The position numbers and the translations under genes were made by a program. Shown in pieces: positions 12,285-16,680 of a DNA stretch of 27,858 nt. The DNA is from an uncultured Candidatus Saccharibacteria bacterium. Lineage in GTDB: Bacteria > Patescibacteriota > Minisyncoccia > JAHIHE01. The notes beneath the pieces are model-generated. The model had not been told where the DNA came from. It searched no databases and saw only the letters and a program-made list of their open reading frames with translations. The DNA is taken from contig CAZKGJ010000002.1 of the NCBI GenBank assembly GCA_964552415.1, positions 1 to 27,858 on the forward strand, in the 5' to 3' direction. Each line of letters begins with the position of its first letter. Position 1 is the stretch's first letter.

Positions 12285-12456
12285 TACATTTAGTACCCGT
12301 ATCAAGACTTGTACTAAAGTTTGTTTTTTATTGCGGCACCGTAGCATCTCCGCCATAGGCGGAGATATGAAGGCGAACCAAGAGATATCAGCGCGGTTGA
12401 AACTTATTGTAAAAAACCTATTCTGATACTCCGCGGCTTGCCGCGGGGTCGGGTTT
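12285..12456 (+). promoter_or_regulatory. Long structured rpsB 5' leader
   Basis: About 170 nt between promoter and ATG, with hairpins atctccgcc-ata-ggcggagat (12346-12366) and actccgcgg-cttg-ccgcggggt (12428-12449). Confidence 0.45.
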
Positions 12457-14725: not shown

Positions 14726-15244
14726 ATGAGTTACGACGCCGTCTTATCAACCTTGATTATTCTTTCGTTTTCTGGCATAATTATAACCTTAGTTAGAAAA
14801 ATTCCCGAAGTTTCTTTAGAATATCAGCAGAACAAAGCATTGTACGATACTATAGCCGATAAAAGCGGAAAACTTTCAAGGGCGGAAAATTTGTTTCGTT
14901 TTGTCCTAGTAAGACTTGAGAAGCTCTTGCGCCAGATAAGAATATACATCTTGAAACTGGATGGAAAAACATTCGGATGGATTCAATATTTGCGCAAAAG
15001 ATCTTTGGAAATTACTTACAATGCCAATAAAATTCCGCTGAAATTGCATTTTAAAATAGAAGAAGGCAGGATTTTAAATATACTTGCCAAAAATCCTAAG
15101 AACCCAGAAAATTACAAAAAATTGGGATTATTGTATCTTCAAAGCAAAAATTTTAAAGATGCCAGCGAAGCGCTGAAAGAATACCTGAAACTGAATCCAT
15201 ATGACAAAGAGATTAAAAAAATCTTAAAAGAAATGCCGACTTAG
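14726..15244 (+). CDS. Membrane-anchored TPR-like protein
   Basis: N-terminal TM segment and a C-terminal TPR-like NPKNPENYKKLGLLY...A...L.LNP. ATG 14726 preferred. The stop codon overlaps the split tRNA shell. Confidence 0.7.
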   Translation: MSYDAVLSTLIILSFSGIIITLVRKIPEVSLEYQQNKALYDTIADKSGKLSRAENLFRFVLVRLEKLLRQIRIYILKLDGKTFGWIQYLRKRSLEITYNANKIPLKLHFKIEEGRILNILAKNPKNPENYKKLGLLYLQSKNFKDASEALKEYLKLNPYDKEIKKILKEMPT

Positions 15245-15418
15245 CTCAATGGCAGAGCAACTTTTTTGCGACGGCCCCGCACCTTTTACGCCACCTTAGC
15301 TCAGGGGCAGAGCAACTGTTTTGTAAACAGTAGGTCCTCGGTCCGAATCCGAGAGGTGGCTCTCACTAAAAAGTGTGGGGTAAATAAATCGTCGGTTCAA
15401 GTCCGACAGTCGGCTCCA
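15235..15418 (+). pseudogene. Split tRNA-Thr-like shell interrupted at the anticodon by a ~100-110-nt insert
   Basis: Acceptor GCCGACT (15235-41)/AGTCGGC (15408-14) plus TCCA, D arm GCTC/GAGC, and T arm GTCGG-TTCAAGT-CCGAC are all perfect. The anticodon region is interrupted after 15268. Confidence 0.7.
15290..15361 (+). tRNA. tRNA-Thr(TGT), nested
   Basis: Full cloverleaf GCCACCT/AGGTGGC with ACTGT-TT-TGT-AA-ACAGT. T loop is TCCGAAT (C55 variant). No encoded CCA. Confidence 0.9.
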
Positions 15419-15419
15419 C

Positions 15420-15503
15420 GGGCGGATACCGAAGTAGTCAAACGGGGCAGACTGTAAATCTGTTGGCCTCCGGCCTTCGAAGGTGCAAATCCTTCTCCGC
15501 CCA
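15420..15503 (+). tRNA. tRNA-Tyr(GTA)
   Basis: GGGCGGA/TCCGCCC acceptor, GCAGA-CT-GTA-AA-TCTGT anticodon arm, long variable arm. Confidence 0.93.
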
Positions 15504-15512
15504 CATAAATAC

Positions 15513-15585
15513 GCCGTTATAGCTCAGTTGGCAGAGCAACTCCATGGTAAGGAGTAGGTCCGCGGTTCAAATCCGCGTAACGGCT
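15513..15585 (+). tRNA. tRNA-Thr(GGT)
   Basis: GCCGTTA/TAACGGC acceptor, ACTCC-AT-GGT-AA-GGAGT anticodon arm, T arm CGCGG-TTCAAAT-CCGCG. Confidence 0.95.
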
Positions 15586-15615
15586 CAGATAATTTTAACA
15601 ATATTTCAAAATAAT

Positions 15616-15771
15616 ATGTCGCAAGAAAGATTAACAAAACTGCAGTGTACGGCATGCAAAAAAATCAATTATCTTACTTTTAAAAGCAAAGGTGCTGCGA
15701 AAGACAAGATGGAAATTATCAAATTTTGCAAATCGTGCCGTAAACATACGCCACACAAAGAATCAAAATAA
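15616..15771 (+). CDS. rpmG: 50S ribosomal protein L33 (Zn-binding type)
   Basis: LQCTACKKINY, KFCKSCRKHTPHKE. True start is 15616; the longer ORF in the track overlaps a tRNA. Confidence 0.95.
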   Translation: MSQERLTKLQCTACKKINYLTFKSKGAAKDKMEIIKFCKSCRKHTPHKESK

Positions 15772-15777
15772 AGACGT

Positions 15778-15945
15778 AGGAGCGTAATTCAGTGGCAGAA
15801 TGACAGTCTTTCTACATGCCACAGCATAGGGCCTTGATGTCAATGGCAGCATGGCAGTCTCCAAAACTGCTCGTAGAGGTTCGAATCCTCTAGGCCCTGC
15901 AATGCGACGGGCAGGCAAAACCGGATACGGGGGTCAGTATCTTTT
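15778..15945 (+). pseudogene. Split, decayed tRNA-Trp-like shell interrupted at the anticodon
   Basis: 5' half AGGAGCG-TA-ATTC-AGTGGCA-GAAT-G-ACAGT-CT (15778-15809). 3' remnant CA-AA-ACCGG-ATAC-GGGGG-TCAGTAT-CTTTT from 15916. The 3' acceptor strand is not recognisable. Confidence 0.55.
15828..15899 (+). tRNA. tRNA-Trp(CCA), nested
   Basis: AGGGCCT/AGGCCCT acceptor, GCAGT-CT-CCA-AA-ACTGC anticodon arm, T arm AGAGG-TTCGAAT-CCTCT. Confidence 0.93.
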
Positions 15946-15960
15946 ATTATTGCAATAATA

Positions 15961-16680
15961 ATGATAAAAATGATAAAAAAAAACCCAAATCATATTGTGT
16001 TTATTATGGACGGCAACAGAAGATGGGCAGCAAGCCATCTTTTGGAATCTTATAATGGACACGAAAAAGGCGCGCTGGTTGTAAAAGAAATGATTAACGA
16101 GGCGGTAAATCTAAAAATTCACTGCTTTTCTTTCTGGGGTTCTTCACTAGACAATATTGTTAAACGTCCAAAGGCAGAAGTGGCATATCTGTTTAAACTG
16201 TTCAGGAAAAAATTTGACGAATTGGCAGAAGACAAAGAAATTCATAATAATCAGATAAAAGTAAACGTGCTGGGGAGGTGGAACGTTCTATTCCCCATTG
16301 AGACAAAAAGCGCGATTCAAAAGGCGATAGACGCAACCAAAAATTACGGCAAATTTTATTTAAACTTTTTGCTTGCTTACAGCGGTAAAGACGAAATGGA
16401 AAGCGCGATTAAGGACATAGTGGATCACGCAAGGGAAAACACTGATTTAAAAATAAATTCTTCTTTAATCAAAAACCATCTTTTTACCAAAGACCTGCCA
16501 CCGGTTGATTATCTCATCCGCACTGGCGGTAACCCCCACCTCTCAACAGGATTTATGATGTGGGATGTTGCCGACGCGCAGTTATATTTTTCCGAAAAGC
16601 TTTGGCCCGATTTCACCCGAGAAGATTTTAGAAAAGCGATTACTGATTACGGTAAGCGGAGAAGAAAATTCGGAGCATAG
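15961..16680 (+). CDS. uppS: Undecaprenyl diphosphate synthase (cis-prenyltransferase)
   Basis: HIVFIMDGNRRWA, YSGKDE, VDYLIRTGG and LWPDF motifs. Confidence 0.94.
   Translation: MIKMIKKNPNHIVFIMDGNRRWAASHLLESYNGHEKGALVVKEMINEAVNLKIHCFSFWGSSLDNIVKRPKAEVAYLFKLFRKKFDELAEDKEIHNNQIKVNVLGRWNVLFPIETKSAIQKAIDATKNYGKFYLNFLLAYSGKDEMESAIKDIVDHARENTDLKINSSLIKNHLFTKDLPPVDYLIRTGGNPHLSTGFMMWDVADAQLYFSEKLWPDFTREDFRKAITDYGKRRRKFGA

Follow-up and report, generated by a model that had tools for sequence, protein, structure and literature searches.

Nested tRNA genes in a Saccharibacteria genome suggest in-place replacement of a resident tRNA-Thr(UGU) by a hairpin-ended cassette

The window, the whole 27,858-nucleotide stretch of DNA analyzed here, contains an intact tRNA-Thr(UGU) gene lodged between the two halves of another. 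We read this nest as a hairpin-ended, MITE-like tRNA cassette that interrupted a resident tRNA-Thr(UGU) gene in the anticodon arm and took its place, a reading to which we assign a probability of roughly 0.7. The first-pass annotation had reported a tRNA within a tRNA at 15235-15418, and all of its features are found there, the inner gene by ARAGORN and Rfam and the outer halves by profile HMM. Among the origins it had suggested, in-place replacement of a tRNA by a mobile mini-element fits the termini shared with other genomes, the non-tRNA cargo that they enclose elsewhere, and the pairing of native outer halves with an immigrant inner tRNA.

The outer gene retains fully paired acceptor (GCCGACT/AGTCGGC, 7/7), D (4/4), and T (5/5) stems, as had been described. 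Its two parts give partial matches to the tRNA profile HMM, at 15235-15265 on model positions 1-31 (genome-wide E 9e-4) and at 15385-15416 on model positions 42-73 (E 4e-3). The outer 3' part, originally taken to start at 15367, begins at 15385 by comparison, which places the cassette at 15269-15384, with an uncertain assignment of the last 4 nt (TAAA) to cassette or target. The cassette measures about 116 bp and is gene-less; no ORF covers the region except a spurious 63-codon frame that runs through the tRNAs. The 3' relic is directly adjoined by tRNA-Tyr (15420). The inner tRNA, the sole tRNA-Thr(UGU) found in the 92%-complete assembly, is presumably the working gene and appears to lack a promoter-like site. 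The TPR gene upstream ends inside the 5' relic, with its stop codon at 15242-15244.

Table 1. Coordinates of the two nests in the window
Feature	Coordinates	Strand	Composition	Basis
Resident 5' relic	15235..15268	+	tRNA-Thr(UGU) positions 1-35: acceptor 5' strand, D arm, anticodon-stem 5' strand, loop to TG	
Cassette left arm	15269..15289	+	CGACGG, left inverted-repeat arm CCCCGCACCTTTTA (15275-15288), C	
Inner intact tRNA-Thr(UGU)	15290..15361	+		ARAGORN Thr(tgt); Rfam tRNA 65.3 bits
Cassette right arm	15362..15384	+	CTCAC, right inverted-repeat arm TAAAAAGTGTGGGG (15367-15380), TAAA (15381-15384; cassette or target)	
Resident 3' relic	15385..15418	+	Position 43, variable loop, T arm, acceptor 3' strand, discriminator T, encoded CCA	
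Second nest 5' relic, resident tRNA-Trp positions 1-33	15778..15809	+		Partial tRNA HMM match 15781-15810; resembles intact native tRNA-Trp of same-genus G001
Second cassette	15810..15915	+	18-nt leader, intact tRNA-Trp(CCA) 15828-15899, 16-nt trailer ending GGGCAGG	ARAGORN, Rfam
Decayed 3' relic, resident tRNA-Trp	15916..15953	+	CAAAACCGG..., AT-drifted T arm and acceptor	By-eye alignment to G001 native tRNA-Trp

Logan contigs from three runs of the mine-drainage source sample match the locus with 0 differences and bridge both nest junctions at even depth. In Logan X1, record 1 spans 15000-15335, record 4 15313-15559, and record 8 15548-16100. The one break between these contigs is internal to the inner tRNA, in its conserved core; it is spanned by base pairing of both acceptor stems, inner and outer, and of the inverted repeat. 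Because the three runs are probably the source data of the window's own assembly, and thus not independent, it is related nests elsewhere, in assemblies from NCBI, ENA, JGI, and Logan, that give independent support. An assembly chimera of two strains or organisms could draw on tRNA cores, which are shared k-mers: a contig end of the relative L041 is a visible Thr(GGT)/Thr(TGT) chimera, and tRNA genes terminate many contigs of this genome. The nest junctions, however, are not placed at shared k-mers, and together with the bridging contigs, the pairing across the only break, and the related nests in the other assemblies, this leaves a chimera a negligible chance.

The inverted repeat reported on either side of the inner tRNA is present in the sequence, and its arms are paired in the predicted fold. 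The leader-trailer duplex of the inner tRNA has an energy of -20.1 kcal/mol (z -4.9), which makes it the outlier of the 33 genomic tRNAs whose flanks are long enough to be scored; most tRNAs of the genome lack a comparable helix. The minimum-energy fold of 15235-15418 (z -4.2) combines the outer acceptor, D, and T arms with a long helix capped by the inner cloverleaf, and both the minimum-energy and centroid folds contain a continuous 14-bp helix with 10-15 unpaired bases on its flanks.

Position and sequence, taken together, mark the outer halves as the native resident gene. A comparison of the locus across relatives, as the annotation had advised, finds the outer 3' half, tRNA-Tyr, and tRNA-Thr(GGT) in the same order as the native Thr(TGT)-Tyr-Thr(GGT) genes of G002 and G047. 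The outer acceptor stem is identical to those of un-nested native tRNAs in the same-order genomes G021 and G029; over the 5' relic, 30 of 34 positions match the G029 gene, a tRNA-Thr(TGT). The inner tRNA shares 97% identity with its counterpart in the L038 nest and 96% with an un-nested tRNA of G035; its type is native to other families, which marks it by sequence as a different, immigrant tRNA. Relative to the native G029 tRNA, the resident gene lacks bases 40-42 or 36-42, amounting to 3-7 target bases lost at the insertion point. We read the outer halves as a relic rather than as exons because these bases are missing, because the rebuilt anticodon arm is unique to this genome, and because no group I core, bulge-helix-bulge, or archaeal splicing endonuclease was found.

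Were the outer gene a working tRNA-Thr, its tRNA-bearing insert would be cut out and the exons joined. Deletion of 15269-15366, the first-pass rebuild, does yield a perfect ACTTT/AAAGT stem with a TTTGTAA loop that ARAGORN calls tRNA-Thr, the outer acceptor, D, and T stems are intact, and the genome encodes the RNA ligase RtcB. The rebuilt arm thus stands, but the call is non-discriminating: when every deletion around the inner tRNA was enumerated in six nests, ARAGORN called 21-69% of these arbitrary deletions some tRNA (40% in this nest), an indication that relic halves can mislead tRNA annotation. The spliced product also requires a 16-nt variable region in a class I tRNA, and a strict 5/5 anticodon-stem test is passed by this genome only, with four of five sister nests yielding no product and L047 yielding only a steric impossibility. 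Permissive cmscan of 15100-16100 (E up to 10) returned four tRNAs and chance matches, with no group I intron or other Rfam family, and ARAGORN with intron search on the locus, a check the annotation had recommended, found the inner tRNA only. The folds contain no bulge-helix-bulge, nor a 3-4-3 motif at the insert borders, and the tRNA splicing endonuclease family PF01974 has no match in the genome, whereas four archaeal controls were positive. The ends left by RNase P and RNase Z are not joined by RtcB, and the shells of relatives decay freely. Splicing of the outer gene is therefore highly improbable, and the intron-like insert suggested at first is unsupported. So is the suggested conformational switch: alternate pairing of 15367-15380 with the outer anticodon stem is matched in none of five sister nests.

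Comparison across genomes shows that the cassette arms are members of a family of termini that flank nested Thr tRNAs, and also non-tRNA cargo, elsewhere in the Patescibacteria. The ends CCCCGCACC...GGTGCGGGG(TAAA) recur around tRNA-Thr-in-tRNA-Thr nests of at least seven other Patescibacteria lineages. Full sister Thr nests occur in L038, L044, L047, L049, L050, and G001; nests bounded by these termini include those of L044, L047 (as a variant), L049, L050, and G001. All seven full Thr nests consist of one tRNA gene with 30-85 bp arms (100-165 bp) and the same termini. In L092 the termini bound a tRNA-Thr(CGU) that interrupts an outer Thr(CGU) at the variable loop, and in L089 and L091 they bound non-tRNA cargo in intergenic DNA. 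GGGGTAAA closes both the L092 cassette, at its different target position, and the non-tRNA elements of L089, in which TTTA/TAAA extends the repeat. Two sister nests are inserted in the D arm or variable loop rather than at anticodon-arm positions 33-36. Resident shells also differ, being GCCGAGA-type in L038, GCCGACT-type here, and of a third kind in G001, and the nests of L038, L047, and G001 are layered.

The phylum-wide pattern search for the termini has low specificity, with 19 matches in 16 genomes against 8 for the reversed control pattern, and only matches with extended complementarity were kept. A scan of viral contigs gave 51 matches, about the chance expectation, none of them enclosing a tRNA, and a metagenome scan with the upstream protein recovered only the G001 species again. 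The genes neighboring four sister nests include no common nuclease; at two of these nests a TPR protein gene lies upstream, as it does here, which is the arrangement of the native locus.

In the six-nest alignment, 92.4% of cells pair, a value reached by 0 of 500 shuffles, and slid controls give 35-45%. The distal CCCCGCACC helix is conserved across sister nests, and the proximal part covaries with compensating changes. Such covariation, which is not required of a protein-bound terminal repeat, hints at selection on folded RNA or single-stranded DNA.

The covariation would also fit a shell that is itself a functional non-decoding RNA, its acceptor/T minihelix and long helix forming a scaffold kept by selection for aiding transcription of the inner tRNA, its processing by RNase P/Z, or its stability. 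The outer acceptor stems of six nests pair in 92.9% of cells, with both-side changes at 4/7 pairs. Between G000 and G001, the conservation of the outer 3' half is close to that of tRNA-Thr(GGT). Its identity to the G001 counterpart is ~86%, though the neighboring protein is only 72% identical, and the outer halves are nearly perfect here, which could reflect selection on the shell. Covariation of shells is, however, expected if each represents an independently invaded native tRNA, and the better pairing of own than of crossed halves (6.4 vs 4.9 of 7) says no more than that each shell's two halves go together. A functional shell is further at odds with the decay, loss, or breakage of shells in G001, L044, L045-L048, layer 1 of L038, and the Trp and Glu nests of this genome, and with the lack of a flanking helix around most of the genome's tRNAs. 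We consider this explanation unlikely.

The same genome holds three further cases. In the tRNA-Trp nest (Table 1), the 3' relic retains ~60% identity to the native tRNA-Trp of G001, a weak, by-eye alignment, and the cassette trailer resembles those of the G001 Glu cassette and the A-type Thr cassette. A tRNA-Glu nest lies on contig C12 and a tRNA-Ser case on C55/C96, where C55 has the nested tRNA-Ser and C96 an intact one; the 3' halves of the Trp and Glu shells have decayed. The break point falls at anticodon-loop positions 33-36 in all four nests (Thr, Trp, Glu, and Ser). In the Ser case the left junction lies in the anticodon and the right junction within an 11-nt identity (CCGCCAGTTGG) at the tRNA 3' end, as would fit recombination of uptake DNA with no dedicated mobile element, that is, homology-facilitated illegitimate recombination followed by gene conversion with the tRNA halves as homology arms. 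Conserved tRNA halves would act as such arms in spreading an existing nest, and the cassette carries no mobilizing gene. Recombination leaves unexplained, however, why the clear cases break at anticodon-arm positions 33-36 (four of four in this genome), why the flanks always form a helix, and why the same termini bracket non-tRNA cargo elsewhere, and we judge it quite unlikely as the full account.

No transposase, integrase, or nuclease was found in or beside the Thr cassette, and no nuclease gene in or beside the Trp cassette. Near the locus the window contains no recombinase; the genome's only tyrosine recombinase, on C104, adjoins a tRNA-Leu 3' part. Anticodon loops are integrase targets, as Williams reportedly described in 2002, and the nest could accordingly be the scar of a tRNA-targeting integrative element (a prophage or island with a tyrosine or serine recombinase) whose body was later deleted. 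Besides the C104 recombinase, a serine-recombinase fragment ~0.6 kb from the L050 nest and an intact tRNA followed by a duplicate 3' half in both L045 and L046 fit such a scar. Integration, however, yields a hybrid tRNA and one displaced 3' fragment rather than a complete foreign tRNA between both halves. The Thr nest has no direct att repeats and no direct repeat of a tRNA segment, no recombinase lies near it, and independent deletions would not yield the one reduced form and the termini shared by seven full Thr nests. An integrative-element scar is accordingly very unlikely.

For a cassette of the kind we favor, candidate movers would be encoded elsewhere. Contig C96 carries an HNH homing endonuclease and a PD-(D/E)XK nuclease between two tRNA-Ser genes, and in L038 a LAGLIDADG gene lies immediately upstream of, and overlaps, a tRNA-Ser. 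This genome contains no LAGLIDADG gene and no IS200/IS605 transposase, and none of its GIY-YIG matches adjoins a tRNA; GIY-YIG as well as LAGLIDADG proteins do occur next to tRNA genes of relatives. A reverse-transcriptase fragment falls just below the Pfam cut-off; an RNA route (anticodon-nuclease cut, RtcB ligation, reverse transcription) was set aside for want of a credible reverse transcriptase. The termini do not form a dispersed repeat in this genome: CCCCGCAC is present six times against 6.0 expected, and the longer junction words a single time. No target-site duplication or flanking direct repeat was seen, target bases being missing instead. Movement of the cassette is inferred, not observed, as empty and filled alleles of the Thr site were not seen.

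The cassette would be (formerly) mobile DNA of MITE-like form that lands in a tRNA gene of its own kind, kills that gene, and provides a functional substitute. Where a tRNA gene is single-copy, only same-isotype insertions would survive, and the host would come to rely on the copy brought by the invader. Transcription of the inner tRNA probably starts at the promoter upstream of the resident gene and reads through the 5' relic; RNase P and 3' processing would then probably free the inner tRNA, and the outer halves would stay unjoined and decay. The mover may be encoded outside the cassette, for example the HNH homing endonuclease of the tRNA-Ser cluster; alternatively, the nest may spread by plain homologous recombination after DNA uptake from a nest-carrying donor. 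That Patescibacteria harbor a class of such minimal selfish elements, tRNA-only hairpin cassettes that invade their own kind of tRNA gene at the anticodon arm, destroy it, and addict the host, mobilized in trans by HNH, LAGLIDADG, or GIY-YIG nucleases in tRNA clusters and building "Russian-doll" loci through repeated rounds, is a tentative proposal that falls just short of an even chance.

Like MITEs and bacterial palindromic elements (Correia/NEMIS, RPE, REP/BIME), the cassette is a small, gene-less hairpin bounded by inverted repeats that can sit inside genes, with the same termini found around different cargo at several sites and in many genomes. Unlike them, it carries a complete tRNA gene of the disrupted gene's own kind, is single-copy in the genome, lacks a visible target-site duplication, and has a proximal repeat that covaries as if pairing matters; we know of no partner transposase. 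Phage T4 SegB is a free-standing homing endonuclease in a tRNA gene cluster ("intronless homing"). Selfish DNA is likewise tied to tRNA genes here, with the HNH gene between tRNA-Ser genes and the LAGLIDADG gene at the L038 tRNA-Ser, but the Thr cassette has no adjacent nuclease gene. Homing of the SegB type acts through homologous repair that converts flanking markers, and to our knowledge no case leaves a gene nested in a split copy of itself.

Integrating prophages and islands also target tRNA genes, with att sites in the anticodon loop (a frequent target) or the T loop, and compensate the damage with their own sequence, but what they bring is limited to the displaced 3' segment, and they come with an integrase and direct att repeats; the cassette has neither, brings a whole tRNA gene, and leaves both old halves in place. 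Group I introns of bacterial tRNAs, such as cyanobacterial tRNA-Leu(UAA), share the insertion inside the anticodon loop. The 116-nt insert, by contrast, has no P3-P9 ribozyme core (typically >200 nt, RF00028), its joined flanks do not give a normal tRNA, and function is replaced rather than restored by splicing. Archaeal disrupted tRNA genes include bulge-helix-bulge introns and split and tri-split tRNAs (PMC4090602, PMC10714607), and they too break near the anticodon with a helix between the flanks. Here, however, the host is bacterial, RtcB is present but neither PF01974 nor a bulge-helix-bulge was detected, and the interrupting sequence is itself presumably the working tRNA. A literature search on tRNA introns and nested tRNA genes in CPR/Patescibacteria turned up no relevant work, and the hairpin-bounded tRNA cassette is apparently an unpublished kind of selfish DNA.

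If the replacement reading is true, essential tRNA genes of reduced genomes are overwritten in place by foreign copies, which would open a route for horizontal tRNA replacement and represent genetic addiction that requires neither toxin nor splicing. The layers of a nest would record successive invasions and could be used to trace gene flow among uncultured Patescibacteria. Nests also coincide with assembly breaks at tRNA loci.

The Thr nest (15235-15418) lies in contig C2 of a 0.71-Mb genome of 109 contigs that is 92% complete. It comprises an intact tRNA-Thr(UGU) positioned between two halves of an outer tRNA gene, and the sequence features given in the first-pass annotation are confirmed. 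A tRNA profile HMM, trained on the tRNAs of this genome and its relatives, recovers both outer halves as partial matches, which possess a fully complementary 7-bp acceptor stem and intact D and T arms. The minimum-energy fold of the nest (z -4.2) contains the outer acceptor, D, and T arms, and the inner cloverleaf tops a helix of 14 bp formed by 15275-15288 and 15367-15380. The leader-trailer duplex of the inner tRNA, at -20.1 kcal/mol (z -4.9), is the outlier among the 33 genomic tRNAs with sufficient flank for scoring. The stop codon of the upstream TPR gene (15242-15244) falls within the outer 5' relic, as it does in the same-genus genome G001.

Table. Nested tRNA genes and their parts; coordinates without a contig prefix refer to the window
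Feature	Location	Description
Outer tRNA-Thr, 5' half	15235-15265	partial match, model positions 1-31; tRNA profile HMM, genome-wide E 9e-4
Inner tRNA-Thr(UGU)	15290-15361	intact; ARAGORN and Rfam, 65.3 bits
Outer tRNA-Thr, 3' half	15385-15416	partial match, model positions 42-73; tRNA profile HMM, E 4e-3
Trp nest, second in window	15778-15953	18-nt leader, intact tRNA-Trp(CCA) at 15828-15899, 16-nt trailer, 3' relic
Trp 5' relic	15778-15809	resembles intact native tRNA-Trp of G001
Glu nest	C12:111-375 (L057)	tRNA-Glu(CUC) within split tRNA-Glu(UUC)-like gene, break at base 33/35
Ser pair	C55:1-260 (L058) versus C96:1-260 (L055)	first 55 nt of C55 identical in C96, divergence after anticodon base 35

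Misassembly, a concern of the first-pass annotation, was checked with Logan contigs from three runs of the mine-drainage sample, which reproduce the locus with 0 differences and even depth. The X1 Logan contigs span 15000-15335, 15313-15559, and 15548-16100, with the sole break located within the conserved core of the inner tRNA. Because pairing of the inverted repeat and of both acceptor stems bridges this break and the junctions lie away from shared k-mers, an assembly chimera is excluded. These runs are probably the source data of the window; independent support for the nest comes from related nests recurring in other assemblies. A contig-end chimera does occur in one public assembly (L041:4116-4191), joining a tRNA-Thr(GGT) 5' part to a tRNA-Thr(TGT) 3' part via a shared k-mer, and several contigs of the present genome (C20, C47, C71, and C104) end inside tRNA genes.

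Two genomes of the same family (G002 and G003) and G047 carry a plain Thr(TGT)-Tyr-Thr(GGT)...Trp array at this locus. The Thr gene abuts Tyr in G002 and G047, as the outer 3' half does in the window. The closest matches to the outer halves are native tRNA-Thr(UGU) genes from within the order: the acceptor stem (GCCGACT/AGTCGGC) is identical in G021 and G029, and the 5' half agrees with the G029 gene at 30 of 34 bases. The inner tRNA, with acceptor GCCACCT, shares 97% identity with its counterpart inside a distant nest (L038) and 94-96% with un-nested tRNAs from other families (G035 and G048); the assembly contains no other tRNA-Thr(UGU). The Tyr adjacency, the same-order acceptor stem, and the likeness of the inner copy to other families thus mark the outer gene as native and the inner tRNA as an immigrant.

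At the same place in G001, seen in at least five assemblies (L006, L034, L039-L043, and L051), a broken outer Thr tRNA holds two cassettes, one in the D arm and one in the anticodon arm, each an intact tRNA-Thr(UGU) flanked by complementary arms. L038 (NCBI assembly GCA_017973895.1), a more distant relative, displays a three-layer nest in which a 5' fragment is followed by another Thr tRNA, itself interrupted behind anticodon base 35, and then by an intact tRNA. An exact-pattern scan for the 3' junction, with one genome per species, revealed full sister nests in four more MAGs (L044, L047, L049, a Buchananbacteria MAG, and L050) and three further loci with a 3' relic only. In all these nests, the resident gene breaks off at ...TTTTG (base 35); the left cassette arm starts with C and carries CCCCGCACC or a near variant, while the right arm bears a terminal GGTGCGGGG followed by TAAAT. 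The tRNA-proximal part of the helix has a different sequence in each lineage and keeps its complementarity (TTTTA/TAAAA, ATT/AAT, ATTTGCCA/TGGCAAAT, TTTCA/TGAAA, and CAT/ATG). Across the six-nest alignment, 92.4% of cells are paired, a value reached by 0 of 500 shuffles, with slid controls at 35-45%. Since the resident tRNA hosting the cassette differs between lineages, the cassette has entered more than once.

The termini recur around other cargo among 400 sampled genomes of the Patescibacteria, searched with a pattern that required TAAA. They bracket a tRNA-Thr(CGU) that interrupts an outer Thr(CGU) gene at its variable loop (L092) and ~90 nt of intergenic, non-tRNA sequence in L089 and L091, with the inverted repeat of L089 lengthened by TTTA/TAAA. 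Because they enclose both a Thr(CGU) nest and non-tRNA cargo, the cassette arms are the termini of a hairpin family of MITE-like form. The same sample suggests that TAAA at 15381-15384 is part of the cassette, evidence partly ascertained by the search pattern itself, and the right border is therefore given as 15380-15384. An inverted repeat of 15-21 bp, CCCCGCACCCC(C)TCCTT...AAGGAGGGGGTGCGGGG, recurs in AT-rich viral contigs (L103, L111, L113, L125, and L127, among others), where it encloses ~70 nt with no tRNA inside. In G001 (L006:1390-1710) and at L038:3930-4190, the tRNAs are set apart by AT-rich spacers built from ATAACCAATAAC-like repeats and inverted copies of them; the window has no such spacers.

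Three more tRNA genes of the genome are interrupted, and the break falls at positions 33-36 in all four cases (Thr, Trp, Glu, and Ser). The Trp nest, directly downstream, has a well-kept 5' relic, a decayed 3' relic, and an inner tRNA-Trp that differs from the native one. As the native tRNA-Trp of G001 is uninterrupted, this insertion is younger than the genus. In the Glu nest, the 5' half is paralogous to the intact tRNA-Glu(UUC) on C20 and ends at base 33; a CCCCGCC... leader, the intact inner gene, and a trailer come next, and the outer gene resumes at base 35. An additional Glu 3' fragment lies downstream, and a hairpin (TCCGCCTTCGGCGGA) occupies the T arm of the relic; G001 possesses the same inner tRNA-Glu and trailer and lacks the outer 5' half. 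In the Ser pair, the shared segment comprises the promoter region of tRNA-Ser(UGA) and the 5' half of the gene. The C96 gene is intact; on C55 the segment is followed by a double hairpin of 51 nt, which is dispersed as a repeat in G001, and then by a different intact tRNA-Ser(UGA). The two contigs may represent alleles within the population, one filled and one empty. A separate hairpin, TCCGCC-NNN(NN)-GGCGGA, has 11 intergenic copies in the genome, including 2818-2832 and 12349-12363 of the window, often right after a second hairpin; a related one sits at TG/T of a Thr tRNA relic in L047. These hairpins look like a REP-like repeat family. Full-text literature searches found no paper on bacterial tRNA genes nested within other tRNA genes, the nearest topics being archaeal disrupted tRNAs and CPR rRNA introns; the feature is unusual and apparently unpublished.

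The first-pass annotation proposed an intron-like insert or a conformational switch. Deleting 15269-15366 does rebuild the anticodon arm it described (ACTTT/AAAGT) and gives a product that ARAGORN classes as tRNA-Thr, but the call is non-discriminating and the sister nests lack this arm. ARAGORN accepts many arbitrary deletions as some tRNA because the other three arms are intact (21-69% across six nests and 40% in the window's nest). Under a strict splice test requiring a 5/5 paired stem and TGT within a 7-nt loop, the annotated solution appears in this genome only; four sister nests yield none, and L047 yields just one, which is sterically impossible. Relative to its native counterpart, the resident gene lacks bases 36-42, or 40-42 when TAAA is counted as target. 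An Rfam search returned no match besides tRNA, the fold of 15235-15418 contains no bulge-helix-bulge motif, and no archaeal splicing endonuclease was found in the 92% complete genome, where RtcB is present. The shells also decay: in G001 the shell is mismatched and has itself been invaded, in L044 the acceptor carries two mismatches, and in L045 the 5' shell has been lost (for L046 and L048, situated at contig ends, only the 3' relics are visible). An intron is rejected on these grounds. The switch fares no better, as the alternative pairing with the outer stem is limited to this genome, a by-product of an A/T-rich helix in its lineage. A shell retained as a functional RNA or scaffold is unlikely, at roughly one chance in ten; it keeps that standing because three points trouble a mobile cassette: the shell here is near-perfect, its 3' half is 86% identical to that of G001, and the proximal helix covaries.

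The third proposal of the first-pass annotation, a mobile mini-element replacing a tRNA in place, is supported by the native outer gene, the immigrant inner tRNA, and the termini recurring elsewhere. From this anatomy and distribution, we infer a mobile hairpin cassette in a resident tRNA gene, which would be transcribed by read-through from the resident promoter, with ordinary tRNA processing freeing the inner tRNA. The cassette (15269-15384) contains no promoter-like site, and neither it nor the window encodes a candidate mobilising enzyme. Elsewhere in the genome, C96:227-1834 (minus strand, L055) encodes an HNH homing endonuclease (HNH_repeat and HNH domains, 221 aa) and a PD-(D/E)XK/Cas4-like nuclease (248 aa), both between a partial tRNA-Ser(GCU) and tRNA-Ser(UGA). 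At L038:5500-6314, a LAGLIDADG_3 ORF (259 aa) begins directly upstream of tRNA-Ser(UGA) and runs into the 5' end of that gene. The ORF is preceded by a promoter-like TTGTGATAAGAT motif, which also precedes tRNA-Ser in the present genome. The C96 nuclease genes and the LAGLIDADG gene are leads, candidates rather than evidence for the Thr locus. The sole tyrosine recombinase of the genome (C104:38-671, L036) adjoins a tRNA-Leu 3' part at the contig start and may mark an integrated element.
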